This document shows, one piece after another, positions 11,766 through 64,000 of a stretch of DNA of 64,000 nucleotides. The stretch's first letter is position 1; each line of letters begins with the position of its first letter. The DNA is from an uncultured Clostridia bacterium (lineage in GTDB: Bacteria; Bacillota; Clostridia; TANB77; CAG-508): contig CALXZX010000002.1 of NCBI GenBank assembly GCA_944393375.1, positions 15,487 to 79,486 of the forward strand, in the 5' to 3' direction. Made by a program: the position numbers and the translations under genes. The notes beneath the pieces are model-generated. The model saw only the letters and a program-made list of their open reading frames with translations. It searched no databases and was not told where the DNA came from.

Positions 11766-11960
11766 TAGAGTTTCTTACTCTAAGAATAATTTATATAAAG
11801 ATAATATCAATAAAGTAGTTATATGTCAATAAAAATATTCTTTATTTGTACAACAAATTTTTATATAAAAATGAAAGTTTTTATAATTATAATCTAAAAC
11901 TATAAATCTATAAATGACAATAGTTAGAAAGATATTATCAATTTCTTAGAGTAAGAAACT
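11766..11960. promoter_or_regulatory. Putative invertible promoter (inverton 1) upstream of surface-protein paralog 1
   Basis: IR-L 11769-11786 (agtttcttactctaagaa) is the exact reverse complement of IR-R 11943-11960 (ttcttagagtaagaaact), 18 bp. The enclosed 156 bp carries TTGACA (11829-11824), 17 nt, TATTAT (11806-11801) on the minus strand, facing away from the gene at 12019. Confidence 0.7.
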
Positions 11961-12018
11961 AAAAGAAAATTAAAAATAGTTTCAAAACAAAAGAAAATGC
12001 AGAAAAGAGGGATAAAAA

Positions 12019-13494
12019 ATGAAAAAACACATACAAAAAAGTAAAATGAAAAATCAAAAAGGAATTACATTATTAGTATTAGTTATTACTATAATAATTT
12101 TATTAATCCTAGCAGGAATTACCATAAGTGCGTTAACAGGAGACAATGGAATTATAGAAAATGCAGGAAAGGCAAAAGAAGAAACAGAAATAGCCAATGA
12201 AAAAGAGATAGTAGAAAAGGCAACCGTACAAGCAATGGGGAATAATAAGTATGGAAATATAGAAGAAGATGAATTGCAAAGTGAGTTAGATAAAGAAACA
12301 GGAGAAGGGAAAACAGATGCAACAGATATAGGAAATGAACTTGAAGTAGTATTTATTGATAGTAATCGATATTATGTAGTTGATAAAGATGGAAATGTAG
12401 GAGAAGCACAAGAGATTATAAAAGATAAAAATCCAGGAGATATTACAATAGGAAAAGATGGAGAAACATTAGATGGAAGTGAAGAACATCCATATGAGAT
12501 AAGGTGTATAGAAGATTTAATAGAATGGTCACAACATTATACTAAATATCAGAATAGTAATATTGTCTTATGTAAAGACTTGAATTTTAAATCTTCACTA
12601 TCTTATGCAGATAGTAAAAGTATGGAATATGGAGACATCAATCAAGATAATACAACAGACAGTCTGATTGAGGAGATGCAAAAAGGAATAGGTTTCACAC
12701 CAATAGCAAATTTTTCAGGGATATTTAATGGGAATCATTTTGGAATTCAGAATATTTATATAGTTAATCATGAAAGTGTAGGACTATTTAGTCAAATAGA
12801 TGGAGCTATAATAAGTGATCTAGATATAAGTGGATATATTGAAAGTACAGAAATTACTAGCATTGCTGGTGGAGCTGGTAGCATAGCAGGAAATATAAGT
12901 GAAGGAAGAAATAAAAAAAGTTATATAGAAAATTGTTCAAATAGTGCTACTATAAAAGGTTTTTTAAACCAAAATTATACAGGAATTGGTGGTATAGTAG
13001 GTAAATCTAACGGGGCAGCTAATATAGTAAATTGTAGTAATAGAGGTACAATAATAAGTGAAGTAGGTACAAAAGTTTATATGGGAGAAAACGCAATAGG
13101 TACTGCGGGAATTTTAGGATATACAAGAGGTAATAAGGCTGATGTCAATATATATAACAGTTATAATATAGGAAATGTTTCATCAAATAAATCATCTTGT
13201 GGAATAATGGGAGGTATATGGGCAGAAGGTTCAATTAATATAGAAAATTGTTTTAATATAGGAGAAGCAAAAATAGGGATTTGTAAAAGTGCAAATAGTA
13301 GTAACAGTATTTACTATTTGGATAGTGCAAGTAGCACAGGAGGAATAACAAATGCAGTTCTTATTACAAAAAATGAATTGTGTAGTGAAGAATTTATTAA
13401 TTTATTAAATGATTATATAGAATCAGGAGAAGATTATAAAACTAAATGGAAAAAATGGAAATTAGGAGAAGAAGGATATCCTATAATTGAATAA
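12019..13494 (+). CDS. Surface protein paralog 1: pilin-like N-terminal hydrophobic module plus GLUG-type beta-helix repeats
   Basis: N-terminus KGITLLVLVITIIILLILAGITISALTGDNGII resembles a class III (prepilin) signal but lacks Glu+5. A conserved ~160-aa module ends at PYEIRCIEDL. The C-terminal half has repeated GG(I/L)(V/I)G...N(C/S)xN.G motifs. Confidence 0.85.
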   Translation: MKKHIQKSKMKNQKGITLLVLVITIIILLILAGITISALTGDNGIIENAGKAKEETEIANEKEIVEKATVQAMGNNKYGNIEEDELQSELDKETGEGKTDATDIGNELEVVFIDSNRYYVVDKDGNVGEAQEIIKDKNPGDITIGKDGETLDGSEEHPYEIRCIEDLIEWSQHYTKYQNSNIVLCKDLNFKSSLSYADSKSMEYGDINQDNTTDSLIEEMQKGIGFTPIANFSGIFNGNHFGIQNIYIVNHESVGLFSQIDGAIISDLDISGYIESTEITSIAGGAGSIAGNISEGRNKKSYIENCSNSATIKGFLNQNYTGIGGIVGKSNGAANIVNCSNRGTIISEVGTKVYMGENAIGTAGILGYTRGNKADVNIYNSYNIGNVSSNKSSCGIMGGIWAEGSINIENCFNIGEAKIGICKSANSSNSIYYLDSASSTGGITNAVLITKNELCSEEFINLLNDYIESGEDYKTKWKKWKLGEEGYPIIE

Positions 13495-46640: not shown

Positions 46641-47312
46641 ATGAAAATAATGAAGGGTTTATTGAAGAAAAATCAGGTAATTATTTATGTTATTGCTCTA
46701 ATGCTAGTGACTGCTGGATATTTAAATTATACTACCAATACGGCAGAACAAGTATCAGCACAGACAGCCATGGAAATGGAGGCAAATGATGATATGCAAA
46801 TTGCTGATATTGGAGATGCTACATTGGTAAGTAGCGAAGCAGTTAATAAAAATGAAGTAGAAGAAAATGCAATAGAAAATACAACAAATGCAACTGCAAA
46901 TATGACACAAAATACCAATACAACGGAAAATAATACAGCAACACAAACAAGTGCAACAGTAACAACAGATGAATATTTTACAAAATCAAAATTAGAAAGA
47001 GATACCATGTATTCACAAATGATAGAAAGTTATGAAAATGTATTAAATAGTAGTAATAGCTTAGAGACGCAAAAACAAAGTGCAACAGAAGAAATTAAAA
47101 AAATTAATGATACAAAAAACAGTATTATGATATGTGAGAACTTAATAAGTACCAAGGGATTTAACAACAATATTATTTTTGTAAATGGAGATAGTATTAG
47201 TGTCATTATTGGAGTAGAACAGTTACAACAAGAAGAAGTGGCACAAATACAAAATATTATTTCTAGAGAATTAAATGCAGAAATTGAAAATATACATATA
47301 TCAACAAAATAG
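46641..47312 (+). CDS. spoIIIAH: Stage III sporulation protein AH
   Basis: The KNQVIIYVIALMLVTAGYLNY anchor and the C-terminal domain (FVNGDSISVII) are typical of SpoIIIAH. Last gene of the operon. Confidence 0.88.
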   Translation: MKIMKGLLKKNQVIIYVIALMLVTAGYLNYTTNTAEQVSAQTAMEMEANDDMQIADIGDATLVSSEAVNKNEVEENAIENTTNATANMTQNTNTTENNTATQTSATVTTDEYFTKSKLERDTMYSQMIESYENVLNSSNSLETQKQSATEEIKKINDTKNSIMICENLISTKGFNNNIIFVNGDSISVIIGVEQLQQEEVAQIQNIISRELNAEIENIHISTK

Positions 47313-47314
47313 GA

Positions 47315-47360
47315 AAATAGCTTAAGAATATTTTATTTATTGAATATTCTTAAGCTATTT
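47315..47360. terminator. Bidirectional hairpin between convergent spoIIIAH and the XRE gene
   Basis: Perfect 18-bp arms aaatagcttaagaatatt / aatattcttaagctattt. The right arm overlaps the 3' end of the XRE gene. Confidence 0.7.
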
Positions 47361-47556
47361 TATTGGCCATTATTCTTATGTATTCGCCTAATTCTTCATC
47401 CGTTAATTCTAATTCTAAAATTAGGTTTTTCAGAACATCTCGTCTAGGTAAATCTTCTTCATTATCAATTCGTATATATTGTCTTAAGCTAATTCCTAGT
47501 ATTTCAGACATTTTTTCTTGTGTATATTTTTTTGCCTTTCTTTTTTCTTTTATCAT
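47350..47556 (-). CDS. XRE family helix-turn-helix transcriptional regulator (68 aa)
   Basis: The YTQEKMSEILGISLRQYIRIDN HTH is typical of Cro/C1-type regulators. Confidence 0.8.
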   Translation of the reverse strand: MIKEKRKAKKYTQEKMSEILGISLRQYIRIDNEEDLPRRDVLKNLILELELTDEELGEYIRIMANKIA

Positions 47557-47615
47557 AACATCACCCTAAACTAATGTTTAAAGTAATTATTACACAAAAG
47601 AAGTAATTGTTGTAT

Positions 47616-47630
47616 TGACATTTAATGTCA
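47616..47630. promoter_or_regulatory. Palindrome TGACA-N5-TGTCA upstream of the XRE gene (candidate operator)
   Basis: tgacatttaatgtca lies 60 nt upstream of the XRE start codon, between that gene and inverton 2. Confidence 0.35.
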
Positions 47631-47679
47631 GCATAAAAATATATAAAATATTTTTTAATCATTTAAAGATAAAAAAGCC

Positions 47680-47874
47680 TTAGAGTTTTTTACTCTAAGA
47701 AAGATTAATATAAGTTAATCATAACAATAAAATAGTGAAATGTCAATAAAATTTAATTGAATAAAATAGTGAATGTTTTAAGGAGAAATAATAAAAATTC
47801 AAAAAATGAAATAGAAGAAAATAAAGTAATATTAATACTTATGGAATTTTCATAATTTCTTAGAGTAAAAAAAT
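47680..47874. promoter_or_regulatory. Putative invertible promoter (inverton 2) upstream of the BspA-LRR paralog
   Basis: IR-L 47686-47702 (ttttttactctaagaaa) is the exact reverse complement of IR-R 47856-47872 (tttcttagagtaaaaaa), 17 bp. The segment carries TTGACA (47746-47741), 17 nt, TATGAT (47723-47718) on the minus strand, facing away from the gene at 47899. Confidence 0.7.
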
Positions 47875-47898
47875 AATGGAAACCAAAGGAGAGAAATT

Positions 47899-50010
47899 AT
47901 GAAAACTAAAGAAAATAGAAAAAATAGGGGAATTACTTTAATTGCCCTAGTTATCACCATTATAGTGTTACTAATTTTAGCAGGAATCACAATAGGAGCG
48001 ATAACAGGAGATAATGGTATTATACAAAATGCATTAAGTGCAAAAGAACAAACAGAAATTGCAAATGAAAGAGAAATTGTAGAAGAAGCAACTGTTCAAG
48101 CCATGGGAAAGAATAAAAGAGGAAACATTGTAAAAGATGAATTGCAAGAAGAATTAGATAAAATAACAGGAGAAGGAAAAACCATTGTAACAGAAGATAA
48201 AGAAGAACTAGGATATTTTGTAAAGTTTGTAGACAGTGGAAGAATCTATAAAGTTAGTATAGATGGAGATGTACAATATTTAGGAAAAGAAAATGAATTA
48301 ATCACACAAGCAGATATTATAGCAAATCCAGAAAGTAATACAACAGCAGAGCTAATACAACAAGTAGATTTAACAGTAAAAACACCAATTGAAATAGAAG
48401 GAGCAGAGTATTCATTAGTATATGCATGGAACCAAGATAAAGAAAATGCACCAGAAGATACAAAATTCTTAGAAACAAACTTAATAGGAGAAGGAAGAAT
48501 CAGAACGACAACGGTATATAGTAGTGATACAGTAGGAGGAGACTATTACTTGTGGGTAAGAATTGTGGTAGGAGATATAGAAAGAGAAGCATGTTTTGGA
48601 CCATATGCAATAAAAGATTATACAACTTTAGTATCTGTTGATTGGAATGGTGGTTTAGCAGAAGGAGGATTTTTAGGAAATAGTGAAGTACCAAGAGGAA
48701 AAATACAAAATATTGATATAATTACATCATTAGAGGGACATAGTGTAGATGATGAAAAAACCTGGGATGTATCAGATGGAAATAAAGGAATGTATTTAGC
48801 ATGGTATGAAGTAAATGAGAATGGATATTATGATGTAACGATTGCAGGAAATGGAGGAATTGTTGCAAATAGTTATTCAACATATTTATTTAAAAATATA
48901 GGTTCTGGTGTGGAAAATCAAGAAGTAACAATAACAGGGTTAGAATATTTAGACACAGGGTTAGTAACGAATATGTATTCAATGTTTGAAAATTGTAAAG
49001 CAGAAGAAATAGATGTGAGCCAATTTAATACAGAAAAAGTTACATCCATGTCATCAATGTTTTCAAGTTGTAGTAATATAGAAAGTTTGAATGTAAGTAA
49101 TTTTAAAACAGAGAATGTAACAAGTATGTATCAGATGTTTGATGGATGTAGTAGTTTAACAGAATTAGATTTAACGAATTTTAATACAAGTAATGTAACG
49201 AATATGGAAGGTATGTTTTTGAACTGTAAAGCAACAAGTATATACTTAAGTGGTTTTGATACAAAAAATGTAGCAAATATGCTAAATATGTTTAATGGTT
49301 GTTCTGTAACAAGCCTGGATGTAAGCCATTTTAACACAAGTAATGTAACAAATATGCAGGGAATGTTTGCTAATTGTAAAGTACAGAGTTTAGATTTAAC
49401 GAGTTTTAATACAAGTAAAGTAACAACTATGTGGACTATGTTTCAAGGGTGTCAAGCAACTAATATTGATGTGAGTAGTTTTGACACGAGTAGTGTATTA
49501 TATATGAGAGAAATGTTTGCATCGTGTAGAGCAACAGATTTAGATTTATCTAATTTTGATACAAGCAATGTAACAAATATGTATAGAATGTTTATGAGTT
49601 GTAGAGCAACAAATATAGATGTAAGCAATTTTGACATAAGTAACGTAACATATACTATGGATGGAATGTTCCGAGATTGTTCAAATTTAGTAAAATTAGA
49701 TGCAAGTAGTTTTACAATGCCCAAAACAACATCTGTAGAGTGGATGTTTGGAGGTTGTCAAAAAATAGAACAAATAGACCTTAAAAATTTTGAGGTAAAG
49801 GAAGGAACCAATATTAATCAGATGTTTTACAACTGCCGAAGTTTAGAAAAATTAGATATTAGAAAATTTGATATAACAAAGACAACTGGATATAGTAATT
49901 ACTGGATATATCCTGTACCAACAACATGTAGTATTATTGTAAATCAAAGCATGAAAGATTGGTTTACAGAAAACCTTCCAAATTATACAAATGTAACAAT
50001 AGGAAATTAG
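47899..50010 (+). CDS. Surface protein paralog 2: pilin-like N-terminal module plus BspA/DUF285-type leucine-rich repeats
   Basis: N-terminus RGITLIALVITIIVLLILAGITIGAITGDNGII is homologous to the other five paralogs. The C-terminal half has about 12 tandem ~24-aa repeats (F(N/D)TSNVTNMxxMFxxCxxxxLDLSN). Confidence 0.88.
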   Translation: MKTKENRKNRGITLIALVITIIVLLILAGITIGAITGDNGIIQNALSAKEQTEIANEREIVEEATVQAMGKNKRGNIVKDELQEELDKITGEGKTIVTEDKEELGYFVKFVDSGRIYKVSIDGDVQYLGKENELITQADIIANPESNTTAELIQQVDLTVKTPIEIEGAEYSLVYAWNQDKENAPEDTKFLETNLIGEGRIRTTTVYSSDTVGGDYYLWVRIVVGDIEREACFGPYAIKDYTTLVSVDWNGGLAEGGFLGNSEVPRGKIQNIDIITSLEGHSVDDEKTWDVSDGNKGMYLAWYEVNENGYYDVTIAGNGGIVANSYSTYLFKNIGSGVENQEVTITGLEYLDTGLVTNMYSMFENCKAEEIDVSQFNTEKVTSMSSMFSSCSNIESLNVSNFKTENVTSMYQMFDGCSSLTELDLTNFNTSNVTNMEGMFLNCKATSIYLSGFDTKNVANMLNMFNGCSVTSLDVSHFNTSNVTNMQGMFANCKVQSLDLTSFNTSKVTTMWTMFQGCQATNIDVSSFDTSSVLYMREMFASCRATDLDLSNFDTSNVTNMYRMFMSCRATNIDVSNFDISNVTYTMDGMFRDCSNLVKLDASSFTMPKTTSVEWMFGGCQKIEQIDLKNFEVKEGTNINQMFYNCRSLEKLDIRKFDITKTTGYSNYWIYPVPTTCSIIVNQSMKDWFTENLPNYTNVTIGN

Positions 50011-50050
50011 AAAAGTTCCATAAATTTAAGATTAGCATAGGAGGAGAAAT

Positions 50051-50668
50051 ATGCCAGAAAAAAAGAAAAAAATAATCATAGGAGCAAGCATAGCAGGAAT
50101 TGTGCTATTGCTTGTCATACTAATCGTTGTAATATCAAATAATAAAAAAGTAGAAGAAAATACAGAAATATTAGAAAATGCAGATTTATCAGAACTAATA
50201 AATGTGGAAAATATAGAAAGTTTACCATATGAAACTGAAGAAACAAAAGAAGAAATATCATCAAAATATATAACAGGAAGAAATAAATATGAGATAAAAG
50301 CAAATGTACAAGCAGGAGAAACAGAAGGAAAGTTAATTTATGCAAGTGGTACACAAAATCTAAACATATATAAAACAGAATATACATTAAACAAATATGA
50401 AGATAAAACAACAAAAGTAAGGAATATTATGCAAGAATTTGAAATGTTGTGTGAAGGATATATGGAAATAACAGAAGATGCATATAAAGAAACAGAGCAG
50501 TTATATGGAGAAAGTAGTGCAGACTTTGAACTACCAGTAGAAGAAAGTATATATACTGAAGGAAGGTTATACAGTAAAACATATAAGAGTGAAGAAAATG
50601 AATATGACATAAATTTTTATAGACAAGACAACAAGATTATATGTGAGTTTGTAAGAGTATATAGATAA
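50051..50668 (+). CDS. Hypothetical membrane-anchored protein
   Basis: GGAGGAG RBS and one N-terminal TM. No recognised domain. Probably cotranscribed with 47899-50010. Confidence 0.55.
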   Translation: MPEKKKKIIIGASIAGIVLLLVILIVVISNNKKVEENTEILENADLSELINVENIESLPYETEETKEEISSKYITGRNKYEIKANVQAGETEGKLIYASGTQNLNIYKTEYTLNKYEDKTTKVRNIMQEFEMLCEGYMEITEDAYKETEQLYGESSADFELPVEESIYTEGRLYSKTYKSEENEYDINFYRQDNKIICEFVRVYR

Positions 50669-50672
50669 TTAC

Positions 50673-50718
50673 TGACCACCTATCCTAGCTTGAAAAAAAT
50701 AAAAAATAAATATATAAT
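50673..50718 (+). promoter_or_regulatory. accC promoter with upstream conserved motif
   Basis: TGACCACCTATCCTAG (50673-50688) abuts TTGAAA (50690-50695), 17 nt, TATAAT (50713-50718). The same arrangement precedes accD. Confidence 0.55.
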
Positions 50719-50730
50719 ATATAAGGTATA

Positions 50731-50758
50731 AAAGACAGTATATAAGCTGTCTTTTTTT
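50731..50758 (+). terminator. Hairpin with T-run between the accC promoter and the accC RBS
   Basis: aaagacag / ctgtcttt stem followed by TTTTT. It may terminate the upstream gene or act as a leader attenuator. Confidence 0.5.
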
Positions 50759-50811
50759 AAGAGAATATAGAAAAATATAAAAATAAAGTATCTTTCGTAG
50801 GAGGAATTTTC

Positions 50812-55019: not shown

Positions 55020-55439
55020 ATGGTATTATTAAAAATATTAGCAGGATTAATTATTTATATATTGATTTGTGTAATAATTGGATTGATCAAATTTAAAGAA
55101 AAGCCAAAAAAATATATCATGTCAACATTGTCTATGATATTTAATGGCTTTATGGGATTTATGGATACCATATTTTTTATATTATTTTATATGTTTTTTT
55201 CAAATCAACCTAAAGGAAGTGCATATTATGTACCAGAAAGTGAAGAAAGTTTAAATGCAATGATAGGAATGTTTCTTTTAATTGTATATTTGTTAATATT
55301 ACTACCGATTAATATATATATGAAACGAAAAGGAAAAATTAGCACAAAAGTATATATAATAATGAGTGTATTGGCAACATTAGTGGGATTAGGAATTTAT
55401 TGGATTTGGATAGGAACACAATTTACCAAAATATTTTAA
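55020..55439 (+). CDS. Hypothetical small membrane protein
   Basis: Four hydrophobic segments and an AGGAG RBS. No family recognised. Confidence 0.55.
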   Translation: MVLLKILAGLIIYILICVIIGLIKFKEKPKKYIMSTLSMIFNGFMGFMDTIFFILFYMFFSNQPKGSAYYVPESEESLNAMIGMFLLIVYLLILLPINIYMKRKGKISTKVYIIMSVLATLVGLGIYWIWIGTQFTKIF

Positions 55440-55460
55440 TAAAAAACAACTAAAAAAAGT

Positions 55461-55654
55461 CCTAGAGTTAAGTACTCTAGAACTTTTTTAATACCTTGAT
55501 TATACCAATAAATATAATAGATATCAACAAAAAATAGAAAATAAAATGACAAAATTTATTAATTGGAAAATAGAAAATAAAAAAGAACAAAGACAGTAAA
55601 AAGGCTAAATAATGCATAAAATCCAACTTTCTATATTTCTTAGAGTACTTAACT
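55461..55654. promoter_or_regulatory. Putative invertible promoter (inverton 3)
   Basis: IR-L core 55466-55479 (agttaagtactcta) is the exact reverse complement of IR-R 55641-55654 (tagagtacttaact), 14 bp. The flanking GAA/TTC extends it with a 1-nt bulge. The segment carries TTGATA (55527-55522), 17 nt, TATAAT (55504-55499) on the minus strand. Confidence 0.65.
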
Positions 55655-55683
55655 AAAAGAAAGTATAGAAGGGAGAAGATAAA

Positions 55684-57219
55684 ATGCAAAAGATAAGGAA
55701 AGAACAGGGAATTACATTATTAGCATTAGTAATTACTATTATTATATTATTAATCTTAGCAGGAATCACAATAAGTGCTATTACAGGGGACAATGGAATC
55801 ATAGGAAATGCAGGACAAGCAAAAGAGGAAACAGAGATTGCCAATGAAAAAGAAATTATAGAAAAAGCGACTGTACAAGCAATGGGAAATAATAAATATG
55901 GGAACATAGAAGAAAGTGAATTACAAGAACAATTAGATAAAGAAACAGGAGAAGAAAAAACAGAAGTATTAAATGTCGAAGATGAATTTGAAGTTGTATT
56001 TCATGAAAGTAACAGATATTATACAGTAGATAAAGATGGAAATGTACAAGGTGCCTATGAAATCATAGAAGATAAATATCCGGGAGATATTACTGTTGGA
56101 AAAGATGGAGAAACATTATATGGAAGTGAAGAAAAACCATATGAAATCTGGTGTATAGAAGATTTAATGGAATGGTCTAAAAACTATAGTCAATATATGA
56201 ACGCATATATAAAGTTATGTACTAATTTAAACTTTAAATCAGAATTATCATATGCAAATAGTGAAACAAAAGACTATGGAGATGTGAATCAAGATGGAAA
56301 TACAGATAGTTTAATAAAAGAATTACAAAGTAGAGAAGGATTTAAAGCAATACAACAATTTTCAGGTAATTTTGATGGTGATGAAAATATAATCAGTAAT
56401 TTATATATTTCTAAACAGGACAATGCAGGTCTCATCTTATCTTTAAATAATGCTAATTTCAAGAATATTACAATAAAAGGAGAAATATATAGCCAAAGTA
56501 ATAATGCCGGAATTATTTCTCAAGGAGGAAATAGTCAAATTGAAAATATTATAAGTGATGTTAAGATATATGGTGGCGTAGCAGCAGGAATAATAGGAAG
56601 ATGTACAGCTCAATTAAACATAAAGGATTGCGTGAACTTGGGAAATATAGAATCAACGTCAGCAGTAGGTGGAGTTTGTGGAGACCAGTTTACAGGAGAA
56701 ATGTTAAATTGTATAAATGAAGGAACAATAAAATCTAGCGCAAGTGGAAATTATGGTGTAGGAGGATTATGTGGAAATACTGGCAGTAATAATACAGAAA
56801 GTACACAAATAAAAAATTGTATAAATAGTGGAACAATTATATATGATGGAAATAAAAGTGTATGGTATTTTGGTGGAGCAGGTGGAATAACAGGATTAAA
56901 TCGACAAACATTGATTATACAAAACTGTGTGAATACAGGAAAAATACAATCTACCTCTTATGTAGGTGCTATATGTGGAATGGATCTTATATATTGGCAA
57001 AGCCAAGAAACATATGAATTAACCAATTCATTCATGTTAGATAATGTGGAGAGAGTAACAGGAAGTAATAATGCAGAAACAGAAATTACAGTATTTAAAA
57101 TCGAAGATGTTCTAGATGTAGCTACAAGTTTAAATCAATATATAAATAATAATAAATTAACAGAACAAGGTTGGAAATTATGGAAAATAGAAAATGATAA
57201 TAAATTAACATTAGAATAA
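55684..57219 (+). CDS. Surface protein paralog 3: pilin-like N-terminal module plus GLUG-type beta-helix repeats
   Basis: GGGAGAAG RBS. MQKIRKEQGITLLALVITIIILLILAGITISAITGDNGIIGNAG start. Constant module runs to PYEIWCIEDL (55684-56166). C-terminal GG(V/L)CG/AGGITG repeats. Confidence 0.88.
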   Translation: MQKIRKEQGITLLALVITIIILLILAGITISAITGDNGIIGNAGQAKEETEIANEKEIIEKATVQAMGNNKYGNIEESELQEQLDKETGEEKTEVLNVEDEFEVVFHESNRYYTVDKDGNVQGAYEIIEDKYPGDITVGKDGETLYGSEEKPYEIWCIEDLMEWSKNYSQYMNAYIKLCTNLNFKSELSYANSETKDYGDVNQDGNTDSLIKELQSREGFKAIQQFSGNFDGDENIISNLYISKQDNAGLILSLNNANFKNITIKGEIYSQSNNAGIISQGGNSQIENIISDVKIYGGVAAGIIGRCTAQLNIKDCVNLGNIESTSAVGGVCGDQFTGEMLNCINEGTIKSSASGNYGVGGLCGNTGSNNTESTQIKNCINSGTIIYDGNKSVWYFGGAGGITGLNRQTLIIQNCVNTGKIQSTSYVGAICGMDLIYWQSQETYELTNSFMLDNVERVTGSNNAETEITVFKIEDVLDVATSLNQYINNNKLTEQGWKLWKIENDNKLTLE

Positions 57220-57242
57220 AATATATAAAAAATAAAAATAAA

Positions 57243-57445
57243 TTCATTGAGTTAGATACTCAATGAATTTTTTACTAAAAAGATTATACCATAATTGTAA
57301 AGAAAATCAAGCATTTAAAAAGATATTTAATATAATAATTAGTAATTAAAAAAGTAATAAAATAAAATGAAAAGGTAGTTAAAAATGCACATATTTTCAT
57401 AAAAAAAGTCCTTTTTAATTTTCATTAAGTATCTAACTTAATGAA
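57243..57445. promoter_or_regulatory. Putative invertible promoter (inverton 4)
   Basis: The reverse complement of IR-L 57243-57267 (ttcattgagttagatactcaatgaa) matches IR-R 57421-57445 (ttcattaagtatctaacttaatgaa) at 23/25 positions. The loop sequences ttagata and tatctaa are mutual reverse complements. The segment carries TTGATT (57310-57305), 16 nt, TATAAT (57288-57283) on the minus strand. Confidence 0.7.
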
Positions 57446-57464
57446 AAAGAAAGGGGCAAGAAAA

Positions 57465-59066
57465 ATGCAAAAGATAAGGAAAGAACAGGGAATTACACTA
57501 TTAGCATTAGTTATAACCATCATTGTGTTATTAATCTTAGCAGGAATCACAATAAGTGCGATAACAGGAGATAATGGAATCATAGGAAATGCAGGTCAAG
57601 CAAAAGAAGAAACAGAGATTGCCAATGAAAAAGAAATTGTAGAGAAAGCAACTGTACAAGCAATGGGAAATAATAAATATGGGAACATAGAAGAAAGTGA
57701 ATTACAAGAACAGCTAAATAAGGAAACAGAGGAAGGAAAAACAGAAGTATCAGATGTCGAAGATGAATTTGAAGTTGTATTTCATGAAAGTAATAGATAT
57801 TATACAGTAGATAAAGATGGAAATGTACAAGGTGCCTATGAAATCATAGAAGACAAATATCCAGGAGATATCACAGTTGGAAAAGATGGAAATACATTAG
57901 ATGGAAGTGAAGAAAAACCGTATGAGATTTGGTGTATAGAAGATTTATGTGCATTTTCAAACGAAGTAAATAAAGGAACAACATTTTGGAGCAAATATGT
58001 AAAATTAATGAGAAATTTAAATTTTAATTCAAATCTTTCTTATGTAAACGGAAACATATCTGTAGATGGGAATATTCAAAGTTGTCAATCAATCGAGGAA
58101 TTAAAGAAGTTATTAACAGAAAATGAAGGATTTTATCCTATTGGAAATTCATATTCATCAACAGCTGCAATTTTTAGGGGAATTTTTGATGGAAATAATA
58201 AGACTATAAAAAAAATATATATTAATAGACCCAATAATGTGGTAGGATTATTCGGAACAACATCCAATGATACCGATAATAATATTATTATTAAAAATTT
58301 ATCTATTTCTGGAAATATGACCGGAAGTACTGTTGGTAGTATATTTGCTGATGTTAGAACTTATGATAGGGATAATAAAGATTCTTTTATAAAAATTGAA
58401 AATTGCACAAGTGACATAAATATAGAAGGAGATGTGACAGGGGGATTTATTGGAATTAATAATGCTTCTTCTACAGGAAAATTGATTATTGCCAATTGTA
58501 TAAATAATGGAACAATAAATGGCAAAAGTTATGTTGGTGGCATTTTAGGATATAATTATAATAATACTAAAATAATTAACTGTTATAATTCAGGAAACAT
58601 AGAAGGAGAGTCGGATGTAGGAGGAATTGTTGGACATGATGAAAGGCAATCTAATATAATAAATACATATAATTTAGGAAATGTGACATCTAATTCGAAT
58701 GCTGGAGGAATAATAGGCTGGTCAGGATGGGCAGAAAAAAGTATAGAAAATTGTTATAATATGGGAAGAATATCAGGAAGTACTGTAGGTGGAATTATTG
58801 GAGGATTAAATATAAGTAATGAATTGCTAACTACTCAAAATTGTTATTATTTAAATAAAAATATTTCAAAAGGAACTGGAAGTTGGAATGGTGGAGGAGA
58901 ATCTCAAGAAGATATTAATGGTATTTCTGATACTGAAATGAAATCAACTGAAATATTAGAAAAACTCAATAATTATGTAACAGAAAATATAACAATAGAA
59001 GGTGTTGTGTTGAAAAAATGGATAGTAGGAGAGGATGGATATCCAATTTTTGAAAAAAATATATAA
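57465..59066 (+). CDS. Surface protein paralog 4: pilin-like N-terminal module plus GLUG-type beta-helix repeats
   Basis: The ATG at 57465 (after AAAGGGG) aligns with the MQKIRKEQGITLLAL start of paralogs 3 and 6. The track start at 57441 lies inside IR-R. The C-terminal ~110 aa are shared with paralog 5. Confidence 0.88.
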   Translation: MQKIRKEQGITLLALVITIIVLLILAGITISAITGDNGIIGNAGQAKEETEIANEKEIVEKATVQAMGNNKYGNIEESELQEQLNKETEEGKTEVSDVEDEFEVVFHESNRYYTVDKDGNVQGAYEIIEDKYPGDITVGKDGNTLDGSEEKPYEIWCIEDLCAFSNEVNKGTTFWSKYVKLMRNLNFNSNLSYVNGNISVDGNIQSCQSIEELKKLLTENEGFYPIGNSYSSTAAIFRGIFDGNNKTIKKIYINRPNNVVGLFGTTSNDTDNNIIIKNLSISGNMTGSTVGSIFADVRTYDRDNKDSFIKIENCTSDINIEGDVTGGFIGINNASSTGKLIIANCINNGTINGKSYVGGILGYNYNNTKIINCYNSGNIEGESDVGGIVGHDERQSNIINTYNLGNVTSNSNAGGIIGWSGWAEKSIENCYNMGRISGSTVGGIIGGLNISNELLTTQNCYYLNKNISKGTGSWNGGGESQEDINGISDTEMKSTEILEKLNNYVTENITIEGVVLKKWIVGEDGYPIFEKNI

Positions 59067-59074
59067 AAAAATAT

Positions 59075-59276
59075 CGTTAAGTTAATTACTTAACGATTGA
59101 AAACTAAATATATAATACCAATAAAAAATAGTAAAGTCAATAGATAAGGAGAGATATACAAGAAAAGAAAAATAGAATAGAAAACAACAAAAAATGAAAA
59201 GCAGAAATGATTTGTTTTATAGTAAAATCAAATCATTCCTGCTTTTTTATATATACCTTAAGTAATTAACTAAAAG
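59075..59276. promoter_or_regulatory. Putative invertible promoter (inverton 5)
   Basis: The reverse complement of IR-L 59075-59095 (cgttaagttaattacttaacg) matches IR-R 59256-59276 (ccttaagtaattaactaaaag) at 18/21, with a perfect 14-bp core. The segment carries TTGACT (59140-59135), 17 nt, TATTAT (59117-59112) on the minus strand. An internal plus-strand terminator lies at 59201-59248. Confidence 0.7.
59201..59248 (+). terminator. Intrinsic terminator inside inverton 5, just upstream of IR-R
   Basis: gcagaaatgattt / aaatcattcctgc, a 13-bp stem with one mismatch, followed by TTTTTT. Confidence 0.65.
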
Positions 59277-59331
59277 AAAATGAAAAAATGATGAAATACA
59301 TGAGAAAATAAAAAGAAAAGAGGTATAACGT

Positions 59332-60987
59332 ATGAGATTCAAAAGAGAAAACAAACGAGAAGCAGGAATTACATTATTAGCATTAGTTATAACCATCATT
59401 GTATTATTAATATTAGCAGGAATTATAATAAGTGCTATTACAGGGGACAATGGAATCATAGGAAATGCAGGTCAAGCAAAAGAAGAAACAGAGATTGCAA
59501 ATGAAAAAGAAATTGTAGAGAAAGCAACTGTACAAGCAATGGGAAATAATAAATATGGGAACATAGAAGAAAGTGAATTACAAGAACAATTAGATAAAGA
59601 AACGGATACTGGAAAAACAGAAGTATCAGATGTGGAAGATGAATTTGAAGTTGTATTTCATGAAAGTAACAGATATTACACAGTAGATAAAGATGGAAAT
59701 GTAGATGGTGCCTATGAAATTATAGAAGATAAACATCCAGGAGATATTACGCTTGGAAAAGATGGAGAAACATTAGATGGAAGTGAAGAAAAACCATATG
59801 AGATTTGGTGTATAGAAGACTTAGTAGCTTTTTCGAATATGGTAAATGGAGAAGGGATTAGGTTAGAAAATGGCGAGCCCAAACAAATAAGAAGTACAAA
59901 TAGTTTTTCTTTAAAATATGTTGTTTTAAAAACAAATCTTAATTTTAAATCAAAATTATCATATCAAAATAGTGAAAGAACGGACTTTGGAGATATTAAT
60001 GGAAATGAAAATGATGGAAATACATTGATGAATGAAATGACAACAGAAAATGGATTTAAACCAATAGGAATGGTTGAAAATACAGGCTTCGGTGGTGTTT
60101 TTGATGGTCAAAATTATTGGATAAAAGAAATGTATATCCATAGAGAAGATAGAGGAGTAGGTCTATTTACTAAAATAGACAATGTAAATAGTGTAGTTAT
60201 AAAAAATTTGAGAATATCAGGAGAAATGGCAGGAAACTCTGGCGGAGGTGTAGTAGGGACGGTATCTTTGGTTTTTAGAGGGAACAATATAATGATACAA
60301 AATTGTATAAATTATGTAAATATTAAAACTACGGTTTCGGCAGGAGGAATTGTTGGCAGTCGTGGATCTGGTGGATCAGATAAGACTTTAATGATTGCTG
60401 ATTGTATAAACTATGGAGAAATTGAAGGACAAAATTTCTCGGGTGGAATTATTGGACTAGCATATGAAACTACAAAAATTATTAATTGCTGTAATATAGG
60501 AAAAATAGTAAGTAAAGATAAAAATGAAGCATATGGAGGAGCGGGTGGAATTATTGGAACTAGTATGTTTAAAGTTAATATTATTAATGCATATAATTTT
60601 GGAAATGTAGAAGCTGAAAAAAATGCAGGAGGTATTTTAGGATATTCTTATTGGGCAGAAAAGAGTATAGAAAATTGTTATAATATAGGGAAAATATCAG
60701 GAGATACTGTAGGTGGAATTATAGGAACATTGACACTAAGTAATGAATTGTTAGCAACACAAAACTGTTACTATTTAAACACAAATATTTCAAAAGGATT
60801 TGGTAGTTGGAATTCTAGTGCAGAAGCATTAGAAGATGTACAAGGTCTTACAGATACAGAAATGAAATCAACGGAAGTATTAGAGAAACTCAATAATTAT
60901 GTAACAGAGAATATAACAATGGAAGGTATTGTATTGAAAAAATGGATAGTAGGAGAGGATGGATATCCTGGATTTGATAATAACTAA
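59332..60987 (+). CDS. Surface protein paralog 5: pilin-like N-terminal module plus GLUG-type beta-helix repeats
   Basis: AGAGG RBS. MRFKRENKREAGITLLALVITIIVLLILAGIIISAITGDNGII start. Constant module to PYEIWCIEDL (ends 59823). GG(I/V)(I/V)G...NC(Y/I)N.G repeats. Confidence 0.88.
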   Translation: MRFKRENKREAGITLLALVITIIVLLILAGIIISAITGDNGIIGNAGQAKEETEIANEKEIVEKATVQAMGNNKYGNIEESELQEQLDKETDTGKTEVSDVEDEFEVVFHESNRYYTVDKDGNVDGAYEIIEDKHPGDITLGKDGETLDGSEEKPYEIWCIEDLVAFSNMVNGEGIRLENGEPKQIRSTNSFSLKYVVLKTNLNFKSKLSYQNSERTDFGDINGNENDGNTLMNEMTTENGFKPIGMVENTGFGGVFDGQNYWIKEMYIHREDRGVGLFTKIDNVNSVVIKNLRISGEMAGNSGGGVVGTVSLVFRGNNIMIQNCINYVNIKTTVSAGGIVGSRGSGGSDKTLMIADCINYGEIEGQNFSGGIIGLAYETTKIINCCNIGKIVSKDKNEAYGGAGGIIGTSMFKVNIINAYNFGNVEAEKNAGGILGYSYWAEKSIENCYNIGKISGDTVGGIIGTLTLSNELLATQNCYYLNTNISKGFGSWNSSAEALEDVQGLTDTEMKSTEVLEKLNNYVTENITMEGIVLKKWIVGEDGYPGFDNN

Positions 60988-61054
60988 TCATAAAGTTAAA
61001 ATTTAAATTACTCAATAGAAAATATATTTGTTAAATTAATGAATTAAATATTGC

Positions 61055-61106
61055 AAAATCTCTAATTGTGTTGTAAAATAATGGAAATGCAATTAGAGAT
61101 TTTTTT
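61055..61106 (+). terminator. Rho-independent terminator after paralog 5
   Basis: 14-bp stem aaaatctctaattg / caattagagatttt followed by a T-run. Confidence 0.7.
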
Positions 61107-61440
61107 GTTTTATTCATAAAGTTTTATTGTTAATTAAAAAAGAGTTTTGTTTAATGAGATTTATATCAAAAAATTAAAAAAATAAATAATCTAACGATTC
61201 AAGTATTTTTAAAATGTTAAAAAGTATTAATAAAATTATTTTTCAAAAATTATTTTGTGATTTAAATAGAGTTTAATTCTGAAGTTTTAAATTTGTATTT
61301 GTTGATTTTTTATATCTGAATTTATATCTGAAACATTCCAGTTTTTATATATTTATTTTTCATGTAAAAAATAAATGGTAATTGTTGTGAGTACAAAATA
61401 TCTCTAATGTATTTATAGATAAAGAAAAGTCAACTTTTTG

Positions 61441-61469
61441 TTGAATATGCAATAAAAATTTGATAGAAT
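61441..61469 (+). promoter_or_regulatory. Sigma-A-type promoter of the Rpn-like gene
   Basis: TTGAAT (61441-61446), 17 nt, TAGAAT (61464-61469). AAAGGAG RBS before the ATG at 61485. Confidence 0.55.
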
Positions 61470-61484
61470 GAAAGGAGAAGATAA

Positions 61485-62369
61485 ATGAGTAATTTAAACA
61501 AATTAAAAGAAGTAGATATGCTACCATTATCAAATGATTATGTATTCAAAAGAATATTTGGAAAAGGTGGAAATGAAAGAATATTAAAAAGCTTACTAGA
61601 AGCAATTTTAAAAATTAGTATACAAAAAATAGAAGTAAAAAATCCGGAAATACCAAAAGAAGCAATTGATGAAAAATTAAGCATCTTAGATATCAAAGCA
61701 GAAATAAATGAAAATACCATTATAGATGTTGAATTACAAGTAGGAAATACAACGGCCTTAGAAAGAAGATTAGTAGTATATAATGCAAAACTAATAGCAG
61801 GAGAAATAAAAGTATCAGAAAAATATCAAAAGGCAAAAGATACAATTGTGATATGTATTATAAATGATAATGTTGTAAGACGAAATGCATATTTAAGTTT
61901 AGCCATGTTAAAATATGAAAAAACAGAAGAAATCAGATATGTCAATATGGGATATGGAAAAGAAGAAGAATATTTAACAGACATGGTAAAATACTATATC
62001 ATAGAATTACCAAAGTTTAAGAAAAAGAAACCAAAGGTAGCAGATTTACTAGAAAAATGGTTATATGTGATTGGGGGAGATAGAAAAATGATGGAAGAAT
62101 GCAAAAAAGAAAATGAAGAAATCAAAGAAGCAGTAGAACAATTAACACAAATGAGTGCAGATGAATACGAAAGAGAACTATATGAAATTAGGGAAAGAAG
62201 TAGATTAACTTATAACACAGAAATGTATGAAGCAAGAAGGAAAGGATTAGAAGAAGGGAAGACTGAAGAAAGAAAAGAAATTGCTAAGAAAATGAAAGAA
62301 AAAGGTACAGATATTACATATATAATCGAGATAACAGGTTTAACTGAAGAAGAAATTAAAGCATTGTAA
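61485..62369 (+). CDS. Rpn / PD-(D/E)XK (PDDEXK_2, TIGR01784 'putative transposase or invertase') family nuclease
   Basis: N-terminal L..SNDYVFKRIFG motif. D...E.Q nuclease core (LSILDIKAEINENTIIDVELQ). Charged helical C-terminus ending in an HTH-like KGTDITYIIEITGLTEEEIKAL, as is typical of this family. Confidence 0.75.
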   Translation: MSNLNKLKEVDMLPLSNDYVFKRIFGKGGNERILKSLLEAILKISIQKIEVKNPEIPKEAIDEKLSILDIKAEINENTIIDVELQVGNTTALERRLVVYNAKLIAGEIKVSEKYQKAKDTIVICIINDNVVRRNAYLSLAMLKYEKTEEIRYVNMGYGKEEEYLTDMVKYYIIELPKFKKKKPKVADLLEKWLYVIGGDRKMMEECKKENEEIKEAVEQLTQMSADEYERELYEIRERSRLTYNTEMYEARRKGLEEGKTEERKEIAKKMKEKGTDITYIIEITGLTEEEIKAL

Positions 62370-62418
62370 TTTATTTATAAGTATCATTAAAGAAATAATT
62401 TTTCAGAACATAAAAAAT

Positions 62419-62618
62419 CGTTAAGTCAGATACTTAACGATATAAAACTAAAAATATAATATCAATAAAAAATAGTAAAGTCAATAGATAGAAAGAATGA
62501 AAATAAAGAATTAAAATTCATAAAGAAAATAAAAAACAAAAAGTAGAAAAAACTTGTAATAGTGTTACAATAAGTAATTTCTGCTTTTTTCTTTTTACCT
62601 TAAGTATCTGACTTAATG
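62419..62618. promoter_or_regulatory. Putative invertible promoter (inverton 6)
   Basis: The reverse complement of IR-L 62419-62439 (cgttaagtcagatacttaacg) matches IR-R 62598-62618 (ccttaagtatctgacttaatg) at 19/21, with a perfect 17-bp core. The segment carries TTGACT (62484-62479), 17 nt, TATTAT (62461-62456) on the minus strand. An internal terminator-like hairpin plus T-run lies at 62542-62590. Confidence 0.7.
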
Positions 62619-62640
62619 AAAAAGGAAAGGAGTAGGAAAA

Positions 62641-64000
62641 ATGCAAAAGATAAGGAAAGAACAAGGAATTACACTATTAGCATTAGTTATAACCATCATT
62701 GTATTATTAATATTAGCAGGAATTACAATAAGTGCGATAACAGGAGATAATGGAATCATAGGAAATGCAGGTAAAGCAAAAGAAGAAACAGAGATTGCAA
62801 ATGAAAAAGAAATTGTAGAGAAAGCAACTGTACAAGTAATGGGAAATAATAAATATGGGAACATAGAAGAAAGTGAATTACAAGAACAATTAGATAAAGA
62901 AACGGATACTGGAAAAACAGAAGTATCAGATGTCGGAGATGAATTTGAAGTTGTATTTCATGAAAGTAATCGATACTATACAGTAGATAAAGATGGAAAT
63001 GTAGAAGGTGCTTATGAAATTGTAGAAGATGAATATCCAGGAGATATTACAGTTGGAAAAGATGGAGAGACATTAGATGGAAGCGAAGGAAAACCATATG
63101 AGATTTGGTGTATAGAAGATTTAGTAGAATGGTCACAAAATTATAGAAACTATCAAAATTCTTATATAGAATTGAAAAGAACATTAAATTTTAAATCAAG
63201 ATTGTCTTATATAAACGGAAAAATGTTAAATTGCAATTCAATAGAAGAATTAAGAAATTTATTAACAAATACTTCTGGAAGTGGATTTACACCAATTACT
63301 AATTTTTATGGTACTTTTGATGGGAAGAACTTTGAAATACAAAATATTTATGAAAATGTATCAGGAAAAGCAGGTTTTTTTGCAGATGCTGCTGGGACAA
63401 TAAAAAATTTAAAAATATCGGGAAATATTATTTCAAATGATGGATATGCGGGTGGAATTGTAAGTAATTTAGGAGAAACATTAAACATTAGTAACTGCAT
63501 TAATTACTGTAACGTTACTGCAAATGCAGAAATACATACCAATCCTGGTAATGTTGATGTTCGTGGAACTGCAGGAGGAATTGTAGGAAAATGTGTAGGA
63601 AATGTTATCATTAAGGATTGTGCAAATGAAGGAAATATATATGGAACAAATGAAACGGGAGGAATAGTAGGATTTCAATATGTTTCTAATATCACAATTT
63701 TAAATTGTTATAATGATGGAATGATAAATGGGGAAAGTGATACAGGAGGAATCATTGGTAGAACATTGGCATCAACTGTGCAAATATATAATTGTTATAA
63801 CATAGGAAATATTTCTGGAAGTGTTACTGGAGGATTAATGGGAAATAGAGGTTCTAATGATAAAATAGAGATAAAAAATTGTTATAATTATTCAGAAATT
63901 AAAGGAAGTAAATATCAAGGAGAAATTATTGGATTTAATTGGGCATATGATACAGAAACATCTCCTACAATAGAAAATGTATTTTATACAAATCAAACAA
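62641..64000 (+). CDS. Surface protein paralog 6 (partial, runs off the window end): pilin-like N-terminal module plus GLUG-type beta-helix repeats
   Basis: ATG at 62641 after AAAGGAG. MQKIRKEQGITLLALVITIIVLLILAGITISAITGDNGII start. The frame stays open to base 64000. It is absent from the ORF track only because no stop falls within the window. Confidence 0.85.
   Translation, partial: MQKIRKEQGITLLALVITIIVLLILAGITISAITGDNGIIGNAGKAKEETEIANEKEIVEKATVQVMGNNKYGNIEESELQEQLDKETDTGKTEVSDVGDEFEVVFHESNRYYTVDKDGNVEGAYEIVEDEYPGDITVGKDGETLDGSEGKPYEIWCIEDLVEWSQNYRNYQNSYIELKRTLNFKSRLSYINGKMLNCNSIEELRNLLTNTSGSGFTPITNFYGTFDGKNFEIQNIYENVSGKAGFFADAAGTIKNLKISGNIISNDGYAGGIVSNLGETLNISNCINYCNVTANAEIHTNPGNVDVRGTAGGIVGKCVGNVIIKDCANEGNIYGTNETGGIVGFQYVSNITILNCYNDGMINGESDTGGIIGRTLASTVQIYNCYNIGNISGSVTGGLMGNRGSNDKIEIKNCYNYSEIKGSKYQGEIIGFNWAYDTETSPTIENVFYTNQT

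Follow-up and report, generated by a model that had tools for sequence, protein, structure and literature searches.

We analyzed a 64,000-nucleotide (64-kb) stretch of DNA from an uncultured Clostridia bacterium (contig CALXZX010000002.1 of assembly GCA_944393375.1), referred to below as the window, which has a G+C content of 28% and carries the spoIIIA operon. The analysis centered on a short intergenic segment that is bracketed by inverted repeats and lies upstream of a gene for a 703-amino-acid protein with DUF285 repeats. We call the segment with its repeats inverton 2 and the downstream gene its cargo gene. An earlier reading of the DNA, made without database searches (the sequence-only reading), had proposed that an invertible promoter controls one member, with DUF285 repeats, of a family of paralogous proteins, and our results support this proposal. 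Thus, inverton 2 probably is a promoter inverton that acts as a phase-variation switch for a surface protein gene, with a probability that we put at about 0.75. The element and its cargo gene are composed of the following features.

47679 to 47699: left core site, CTTAGAGT-TTTTT-ACTCTAAG, a perfect 8-5-8 palindrome
47703 to 47855: predicted invertible segment, 153 bp
47718 to 47746, minus strand: predicted sigma-70-type promoter, TTGACA-17-TATGAT with a TG extended -10, leftward as assembled
47859 to 47879: right core site, CTTAGAGT-AAAAA-AATAATGG, with a degenerate outer half-site
47888 to 47893, plus strand: predicted ribosome-binding site GGAGAG, 5 nt 5' of the cargo ATG
47899 to 50010, plus strand: cargo gene, 703 amino acids, with a pilin-like N-terminal hydrophobic helix, a family module of about 130 amino acids, and 12 DUF285/PARCEL repeats

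Repeats and promoter of inverton 2

The two arms of inverton 2 (47686 to 47702 and 47856 to 47872) were complementary at 17 of 17 nucleotides (100%) and were separated by 153 nt, exactly as the sequence-only reading had described them. Pairs of exact 17-mer inverted repeats with a gap of 100 to 260 nt occurred four times in the window and were absent from 30 first-order Markov shuffles. The previously noted left repeat corresponds to the spacer plus the inner arm of the left core site, and the right repeat corresponds to the inner arm plus the spacer of the right core site. The minus-strand motif TTGACA-17-TATGAT was also present at the reported position (47746 to 47718); it matched the promoter consensus at 11 of 12 positions, carried the TG of an extended -10 element, and was the sole outstanding promoter match within positions 47250 to 48000. 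The distance from this promoter to the left repeat is 15 nt, and the distance to the conserved C that opens the left core site is 18 nt. In the assembled orientation the promoter faces outward, away from the cargo gene and toward a 68-amino-acid XRE-family gene, which agrees with the earlier description, and this leftward orientation would correspond to the off state of the cargo gene.

We also observed a direct repeat, AATAAAATAGTGAA, at 47726 to 47739 and at 47760 to 47773 (34 nt apart) within the inverton 2 segment. Since the first copy overlaps the promoter spacer, the second copy may be a remnant of a duplicated promoter.

Homologous elements in the window and in related genomes

When the window was searched with the repeat sequence, a pair that is nearly identical (11771/11942) and one isolated copy (55636) were found. 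The same layout was found upstream of the paralogues at 12019, 55684, 57441/57465, and 59332, and a sixth copy was found before the gene starting at 62641. The five additional units are as follows.

11764 to 11965: inverton 1, core sites 11764 to 11784 and 11945 to 11965, spacer TTCTT, promoter 11829 to 11801 (minus strand), cargo 12019 to 13494
55461 to 55659: inverton 3, spacer TAAGT, promoter 55527 to 55499 (minus strand), cargo 55684 to 57219
57245 to 57443: inverton 4, spacer TAGAT, promoter 57310 to 57283 (minus strand), cargo 57441/57465 to 59066 (Glug)
59075 to 59276: inverton 5, spacer TAATT, promoter 59140 to 59112 (minus strand), cargo 59332 to 60987
62419 to 62618: inverton 6, spacer CAGAT, promoter 62484 to 62456 (minus strand), cargo from 62641, running off the window

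All six invertons carry a TG-extended sigma-70 promoter on the minus strand, located beside the left repeat and facing away from the gene. For the open reading frame (ORF) called at 57441, the second methionine (57465) is probably the true start, as it gives a MQKIRKEQGITLL N terminus like that of the neighboring paralogue; a start at 57441 would instead make the start codon and the right core site of inverton 4 overlap.

Species-representative genomes were scanned with the N-terminal module of the family, which returned 80 loci (retrieved loci and contigs are designated by L numbers below). All of these loci were from metagenome-assembled genomes (MAGs) of uncultured Clostridia/Eubacteriales, with many loci per genome, and the isolate names of the MAGs point to chicken gut and to the "BRZ" metagenome series. 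The promoter-to-site geometry of inverton 2 was found again in 66 homologous units. A second scan, of metagenomes with the N-terminal profile, returned mostly distant human-gut relatives without an inverton 2-type element; a site pair was detected in 8 of 80 under a loose filter, and four of these were convincing, all of them in the off orientation.

Conserved core sites with matched spacers

We extracted 56 inverton site pairs, 50 of which were unique, and all site statistics refer to these 50. To pass the extraction filter, a pair needed a left site with GT and AC flanking its spacer and a palindrome matching at 7/8 positions or better, together with a partner site with no more than 3 mismatches in 14 nt; the other conserved core-site positions were not imposed by the filter. 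Each inverton end consists of a 21-bp core, CNTWRAGT-N5-ACTYWANG, and the site-to-site distance clusters at 152 to 161 nt (about 157). C-10, T-8, and AGT/ACT were conserved in all four half-sites. At the left site A-5/T+5, T-8/A+8, and C-10 were invariant, and G+10 was present in 48 of the 50 invertons. The left site is a near-perfect palindrome whose stem covaries, with T-A and A-T or G-C and A-T pairs and with all four pairs at positions +/-9. The outer half of the right site, on the other hand, has a fixed ACTAAAAG-like sequence in which the invariant positions are kept and the stem is broken, and right sites paired at position +/-6 in only 14% of the invertons.

The 5-bp spacer between the arms took 28 distinct values among the 50 invertons. 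In 49 of 50 pairs, the two partner spacers were nevertheless exact reverse complements of each other; shuffled pairings gave 2.7 such matches on average and 9 at most. All six spacers in the window differ from each other. Within single genomes, spacers were distinct in 163 of 167 pairs (duplicates in 4 of 167), a comparison that is not a clean test in that identities between genomes reflect orthology. Judged from this pattern, a locus-specific spacer should confine recombination to the cognate site pair.

Terminator-like structure of the left core site

Sites were scored as terminator-like when a hairpin at or below -8 kcal/mol was followed by at least 6 T residues in 12 nt. With this definition, 46 of 50 left sites were terminator-like for leftward RNA, compared with none of the 50 right sites for rightward RNA. 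The mean T count of the tail was 8.8 at left sites versus 2.1 at right sites, and the mean fold energies were -12.1 and -5.4 kcal/mol, respectively. The degenerate outer half of the right core site means that no hairpin, and thus no terminator toward the cargo gene, is formed there, and this transcriptional reading of the asymmetry would account for the presence of a perfect palindrome at one site only.

In inverton 2, the hairpin at the left site (47700 to 47678, minus strand) is formed by 9 pairs, with CTTTTTTATC as its tail. It was the only terminator-like call within 47250 to 48000 (shuffle mean, 0.1) and had a fold energy of -9.6 kcal/mol (z = -3.5), so that the minus-strand hairpin with a U-tract placed at the left repeat by the sequence-only reading was recovered by both the terminator call and the fold energy. 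The right side (47846 to 47900) folded like its shuffles (-4.7 kcal/mol, z = -0.18). The left sites of all six window invertons were called as minus-strand terminators, and the region from 55380 to 62660 contained five terminator calls (0.5 expected from shuffles), all of them at left sites; four of these were minus-strand calls, and the fifth was a plus-strand call at inverton 3. The inverton 2 terminator was the weakest of the six (-9.6 kcal/mol versus -10.3 to -18.6 kcal/mol).

Additionally, some paralogues (59196 to 59250, L031 positions 1 to 60, and L041 positions 121 to 175) showed, by eye, a hairpin with a T-run at the promoter-distal end of the segment, which the terminator scan did not call. 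When the switch is off, this hairpin is turned toward the gene and lies immediately ahead of the right site, where it would block read-through a second time.

Orientation of the homologous elements

Orientation was assigned with symmetric criteria, namely, a promoter 6 to 23 nt from the core site and a correctly placed family gene. The census gave 66 units in the off orientation and 3 in the on orientation, two of them (L041 and L075) by the symmetric criteria and one (L025) by eye; L025 falls outside the regular expression, its right outer half-site not fitting. Two further on calls, L040 and L094, were spurious; either a stronger off unit was also present or the position was at the left site.

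The segment of L041 aligned in reverse to the invertons of more than 25 loci, including inverton 6 of the window, while its 5' untranslated region and gene aligned forward. L031, which belongs to a different MAG, matches L041 at 93 to 95% identity on either side of the right site and has the opposite segment end there. Thus, L041 and L031 are orthologues in opposite orientations, which indicates that inversion occurs in nature for this element family. Similarly, the L025 segment aligned in reverse to L045. On these alignments, we consider inversion to be real at the level of the family. The L025 contig begins inside the inverton, and the contigs ending at or inside invertons were L031, L025, L075, L126, L128, and L129; contig ends at invertons are expected where the population is mixed. 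Contigs L012 to L015 stop inside the conserved N-terminal module of the gene.

Cargo proteins

The cargo protein of inverton 2 matched DUF285 (PF03382) with an E value of 3.5e-66 and 220.8 bits (cutoff, 25) and the PARCEL repeat model TIGR02167 with an E value of 1e-77 and 255 bits (cutoff, 30) in nine stretches. It contains 12 MFxxC units of the F(N/D)TSNVTxMxxMFxxC type with a period of 25 to 26 residues, in accordance with the approximately 12 tandem F(N/D)TSNVT..MF..C units counted in the sequence-only reading. The label of BspA-type leucine-rich repeats (LRR) given to these units was not supported, as the only LRR-type Pfam matches listed, LRR_8 (23.1 bits) and LRR_4 (18.9 bits), both scored under their 27-bit cutoffs; "BspA-like" is a loose annotation label for DUF285 proteins. 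Residues 1 to 132 were 63 to 66% identical to four paralogues in the window, and in this respect the N-terminal module of the family is kept, as had been claimed. The paralogues share a basic N terminus and G-ITLLALVITIIVLLILAGI, followed by the conserved module of about 130 residues, and vary in their C-terminal regions, with GLUG-like repeats in the others and DUF285 in the 703-amino-acid cargo. With regard to the GLUG beta-helix named in the sequence-only reading, only one paralogue (57441 to 59066) passed the Pfam threshold for Glug.

Several observations bear on the nature of the N-terminal module. The N_methyl model (PF07963) scored 18.2 bits on the cargo N terminus, below the cutoff of 21.2, and comparison of the N-terminal profile with PDB sequences gave weak matches to pilin N termini (E = 0.006 to 0.8). 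The glutamate at position +5 is absent from all five paralogues, which have Ala or Val there (after the Gly, ITL(L/I)A/V); some tip or minor pilins also lack Glu5. The model of residues 1 to 140 (pLDDT, 79.8) contained helices at 10 to 36, 41 to 71, and 79 to 90 and four strands, which amount to a long kinked helix, a short helix, and a four-stranded sheet, a predicted topology that is compatible with a small pilin. A Foldseek search of the PDB with the N-terminal model gave nothing with an E value of <0.1 and no pilin among the 50 matches listed. No prepilin peptidase or pilus machinery was identified in the 64-kb window. At L183, a Peptidase_A24 (prepilin peptidase) gene (12421 to 13170) is located about 0.7 kb downstream of a split family gene, one gene further on. 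Taken together, the sequence features lead us to describe the cargo proteins as pilin-like modular surface proteins and to treat their incorporation into a pilus as only a possibility. A profile search identified 7,871 related proteins; the only source name among the 120 best was "hypothetical protein," and 2 of those 120 carry an unrelated precomputed Pfam entry.

The cargo gene is followed by a second gene of the same variable cassette.

50051 to 50668, plus strand: membrane-anchored protein, 205 amino acids, with a 40-nt gap to the cargo gene

The interval between the 703- and 205-amino-acid genes gave neither a promoter nor a terminator call, and in the retrieved contexts the 205-amino-acid gene was present only where the 703-amino-acid gene was present. 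On the basis of the 40-nt gap, the lack of a promoter or terminator call within it, and this co-occurrence, the 205-amino-acid gene is probably cotranscribed and coregulated with the cargo gene. The C terminus of a homologue of the 205-amino-acid protein was also found upstream of another family gene (L023 positions 1 to 210), and this small membrane protein may be a recurrent partner of the family. At other loci (L096, L097, L183, and L185 to L188), the family gene was called as two ORFs, an N-terminal module of 130 to 230 amino acids and a separate C-terminal ORF, and the best database matches to the N-terminal module were likewise short proteins on long contigs. These split ORFs could be frameshifts, a second layer of variation, or assembly errors.

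The XRE gene and the adjacent palindrome

Two features lie to the left of inverton 2.

47350 to 47556, minus strand: XRE-family helix-turn-helix (HTH) gene, 68 amino acids, HTH_3 28.2 bits (cutoff, 23) and HTH_19 30.3 bits (cutoff, 30.2)
47616 to 47630: palindrome TGACA-TTTAA-TGTCA, about 60 nt 5' of the XRE start codon, a candidate operator for autoregulation by XRE

Both had been reported by the sequence-only reading, and both were verified: the 68-amino-acid product exceeded the cutoffs of the two HTH models, and the TGACA-N5-TGTCA palindrome is found, together with the left hairpin, between the inverton promoter and the XRE gene. The same reading had suggested that the switch could reciprocally affect the regulator. 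To this suggestion the related genomes are relevant. An identical 68-amino-acid XRE protein was encoded between spoIIIAH and accC in ten contexts (L001 to L010), and the content of the interval between XRE and accC differed among them. Nothing else was present in L001, L006, L008, and L009; L002, L005, and L007 contained a 360-amino-acid family member with its own inverton (spacer, TAGTT); L004 contained unrelated small genes (167 and 91 amino acids); and L003 and L010 contained the 703- and 205-amino-acid pair. The site equivalent to window positions 47632 to 50800 is thus polymorphic between strains and species.

The palindrome was intact in seven of the eight XRE-upstream regions, including cassette-free ones, with one substitution in L001. 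In the alignment of these regions, the sequence from the palindrome through the ATG was almost invariant, and similarity stopped a few bases past the palindrome. Since the XRE gene, its upstream region, and the palindrome are kept in cassette-free relatives and in relatives with different cargo (L002 and L004), they belong to the core genome, with the palindrome in XRE's own control region, and since the homology ends just past the palindrome, the palindrome predates the cassette, which was inserted beside it later and is variable. None of the other five window invertons has an XRE neighbor, and the terminator of the leftward promoter is generic, being found at six of six left sites in the window and in 46 of 50 homologues whatever the left-hand gene. 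These results speak against the suggested reciprocal effect, and the XRE gene probably does not belong to the switch; some transcription may still leak into XRE while the switch is off, as the terminator of this copy is the weakest of the six. Separately, positions 47610 to 47623 and 47738 to 47751 form a 14-nt match (93% complementary) between a palindrome half and the -35 region of the promoter, with ATTGACATTT in common (10-nt identity). This match may be due to chance in DNA with 18% G+C, or it may represent a half-operator.

Proposed mechanism

We propose that the 153-bp segment is flipped by a recombinase encoded elsewhere in the genome, which would exchange strands within the inverted pair of 21-bp core sites. 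With the switch off, the promoter, a strong one of the extended -10 type, would fire leftward and meet the left core site about 10 nt after the transcription start, where the left palindrome and its U-tract would terminate the transcript, leaving the cargo operon silent and the neighboring genes insulated. In the on state, the promoter would lie 15 nt from the right repeat; the right site, with its nonpalindromic outer half and A-rich downstream sequence, would form no terminator, and transcription would enter the 703-amino-acid gene, and probably the 205-amino-acid gene too, meeting no terminator before the ribosome-binding site and the ATG. Inverton 2 would be one unit of a multilocus system (six units in the window and many per genome in relatives) in which the units, each with its own 5-bp spacer, would govern proteins that differ in their C-terminal "head" and share the pilin-like N-terminal module. 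The proposal builds on what the sequences show, namely, the anatomy and conservation of the elements, the covariation of their spacers, the asymmetry of their terminators, and the presence of both orientations among the homologues.

A number of results weigh against this mechanism or against its operation in inverton 2. Regular-expression searches for tyrosine and serine recombinase motifs found none in six frames of the 64-kb window and none in the +/-1.5-kb flanks of the 80 loci; likewise, there was no recombinase in five +/-10-kb contexts of family genes, and Pfam searches with 20 further window ORFs returned housekeeping genes and one PDDEXK_2 only, with no recombinase. For inverton 2 itself, seven same-strain contigs, which come from six samples (L003 and L011 are one contig), and a sister species (L016) all showed the off orientation. 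These seven contigs were found via an identical XRE or spoIIIAH protein, and assemblies give the majority orientation only; a look-up through the 205-amino-acid gene returned more contigs with the cargo gene, which are outside the orientation count, and an exact-protein look-up of the 703-amino-acid cargo found no record. An exact-match scan of a metagenome collection with the inverton 2 right junction gave 0 matches. The 66:3 bias of the census implies either that on-state units never make up the majority or that flipping is rare in most copies. Moreover, the right outer half-site of inverton 2, AATAATGG, misses two of the five positions that are near-invariant elsewhere, relative to the ACTAAAAG consensus, and owing to this variant the copy may flip poorly. 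Finally, the on and off assignments are predictions from promoter and terminator consensus sequences. We infer the class and identity of the recombinase, the transcriptional outcomes, and flipping of the inverton 2 copy.

With no recombinase gene in the window, the invertase is assumed to be trans-acting and encoded elsewhere in the genome. The cores of lox, FRT, dif, and att sites have dyad-symmetric arms around a short center that must match its partner, and serine invertases cut with a 2-bp stagger. The odd 5-bp center of the present sites fits a 7-bp overlap (T-N5-A) better than a 2-bp serine stagger, and we therefore favor a tyrosine recombinase, a class assignment drawn from the odd length of the spacer and the symmetry of the site. 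An Rpn-like PD-(D/E)XK gene (PDDEXK_2, PF12784; 61485 to 62369) lies directly upstream of inverton 6, at a distance of about 50 nt from its left site. Homologues with 33 to 90% identity are located beside family genes in L024, L037, L077, L046, L097, L096, and L088, and other PD-(D/E)XK-type genes (YhcG_C/DUF1016 and PDDEXK_9) flank family loci in L185 to L187. We regard this placement as island-type co-location and the PDDEXK_2 protein as only a long-shot candidate for the invertase. A system run by a noncanonical invertase of this kind or, in a milder version, by one trans-acting recombinase for which the 5-bp spacers would be natural barcodes, so that dozens of switches for interchangeable pilus-tip adhesins could operate independently, is a speculation to which we give very little weight.

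Alternative explanations

The alternative that deserves most attention is a fossil or locked switch, in which the family flips and inverton 2 no longer does, so that its cargo would be permanently silent or expressed from some other weak promoter. The off-only sightings in seven contigs, six samples, and the sister species would be explained in this way, as would the departure of AATAATGG from the ACTAAAAG consensus at two near-invariant positions. However, the L016 orthologue of inverton 2 is 94% identical; about 13 substitutions fall in its interior, and the repeats and promoter are free of them, which means that both 17-bp arms and the promoter have been left untouched in two lineages, and the 703-amino-acid cargo ORF is intact. 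The AATAATGG variant is found at the same chromosomal locus in both L016 and L002, and L002 is a different allele whose spacers (TAGTT/AACTA) match each other; spacer matching has therefore been maintained despite the variant. In addition, because 66 of 69 units are off, off-only sightings are expected even for a working switch. We thus consider a locked switch unlikely and read inverton 2 as a working but possibly less efficient copy, as its half-site sequence would suggest. A reciprocal switch, in which the inverton promoter reads through the left hairpin into XRE, the flip toggles between XRE and the surface protein, and the palindrome is the coupling operator, seems to us improbable. The inverton 2 promoter and XRE are indeed codirectional and about 160 nt apart, the weakest terminator of the six is the one at inverton 2, which makes some read-through conceivable, and the -35 region of the promoter and the palindrome half have ATTGACATTT in common. 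Against these points stand the conservation of XRE, its upstream region, and the palindrome in cassette-free relatives and the end of homology between cassette-bearing and cassette-free genomes just past the palindrome, which makes the palindrome older than the cassette. The leftward promoter with its terminator is, moreover, generic in 46 of 50 homologous units whatever the neighbor, and the other five window invertons lack an XRE neighbor.

It is least probable of all, and in our estimate hardly credible, that the element is no switch but a remnant of a miniature inverted-repeat transposable element (MITE-like) with an outward promoter or an RNA-level element with pairing arms. The element is short, flanked by inverted repeats, and multicopy, and a PD-(D/E)XK "transposase-like" gene is located beside some copies, all of which would suit a mobile remnant. 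Yet every copy is found at the same distance and in the same orientation before a family gene, and the copies diverge along with their genes (65 to 78% identity) and are not near-identical dispersed copies. The spacers covary within a pair and differ between copies, which is unexpected for transposon ends, and inverted homologues with unchanged flanks exist. An RNA-level element would also call for a transcript spanning both arms, and no upstream plus-strand promoter for such a transcript was found. Chance hairpins were considered as well and were rejected together with the MITE and the RNA attenuator. Overall, a promoter inverton is the reading that we retain for inverton 2.

Significance and comparison with known systems

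Invertible promoters in front of surface protein genes of gut bacteria are already well known, and the principle is not new (general inverton surveys, PMC11892184 and PMC11602134). What seems worth recording here is a multilocus family with a sharply defined core site, locus-specific spacers that match their partner, and a left site that would be the terminator of the off state. It places a large, unnamed family of pilin-like surface proteins of uncultured Clostridia from chicken and other gut metagenomes under what would be multilocus phase variation, and the clean definition of the sites makes a search for the recombinase and tests of site compatibility feasible. The design is compact, in that one recombination site would both silence and insulate the off-state promoter and its partner is specifically nonterminating. 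As metagenome assemblies break at these loci and nearly always present them in the off orientation, their expression potential cannot be read from MAGs alone. In a limited literature search, which is not proof of absence, we found no description of the family or of terminator-capped invertons.

In Bacteroides fragilis, the serine recombinase Mpi flips the promoters of polysaccharide loci globally. That system and the present one are alike in having dispersed promoter cassettes with a common repeat consensus in front of different surface loci and a recombinase that apparently is not adjacent. However, the host here is an AT-rich (28% G+C) sporulating Clostridia lineage, and the cargo consists of single pilin-like modular proteins, whereas in B. 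fragilis it consists of polysaccharide operons. The CNTWRAGT-N5-ACTYWANG site with its odd, locus-specific 5-bp spacer would also suit a tyrosine recombinase better than a serine recombinase such as Mpi, and the left site here would double as a terminator, in contrast to B. fragilis.

Clostridioides difficile offers a closer comparison with regard to the host. The cwpV switch of this species uses an intrinsic terminator, and to our knowledge the repeats recognized by RecV have no clear common core, in contrast to the repeats described here. One trans-acting tyrosine recombinase, RecV, serves the cwpV, flgB, and cmrRST switches (PMC5903667, PMC5386303, PMC7446863), and the flgB switch involves Rho termination (PMC7446863). 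As in the present family, the host belongs to the Clostridia, the elements are short and are located upstream of surface or motility genes, and termination is part of the on/off logic. In cwpV and flgB, however, the promoter lies outside the segment and orientation controls downstream termination, whereas here the promoter is inside the segment and the predicted terminator is fixed in the left site.

The fimS element of Escherichia coli, on which FimB and FimE act, is a segment of about 300 bp with short inverted repeats that carries the promoter of a pilus gene. In fimS, as in inverton 2, the off-state promoter points at a neighboring regulator gene, and this analogy lies behind the idea of a reciprocal switch. 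The recombinases of fimS are encoded beside the switch, though, and fimE expression is tied to orientation, while the XRE gene here is unrelated and separated from the promoter by the putative terminator.

The Clostridia inverton group 139 comprises elements of about 200 to 230 bp between repeats of 13 to 26 nt, with several per genome in gut Clostridia, and for some of its members orientation has been linked to surface attachment (PMC11892184). A tyrosine recombinase is nearly always found within 5 kb of group 139 invertons (PMC11892184), whereas there was none in the 64-kb window or in the five +/-10-kb contexts examined here, a comparison made at the level of the published description. With regard to the cargo, the DUF285/PARCEL proteins described so far are mostly lipoproteins of Mollicutes or Listeria-type surface proteins (PMC2996958). 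In the present family, in contrast, the repeats are fused to a pilin-like module and stand behind a putatively invertible promoter.

The nearest parallel to the spacers comes from engineered Cre and Flp systems. Heterospecific lox and FRT sites have conserved arms and need a matching spacer, and sites with different spacers are incompatible. The invertons described here resemble such sites in having 28 spacers that match in 49 of 50 pairs; in this case, however, the pattern is a natural one, and incompatibility between units with different spacers would be its predicted consequence.

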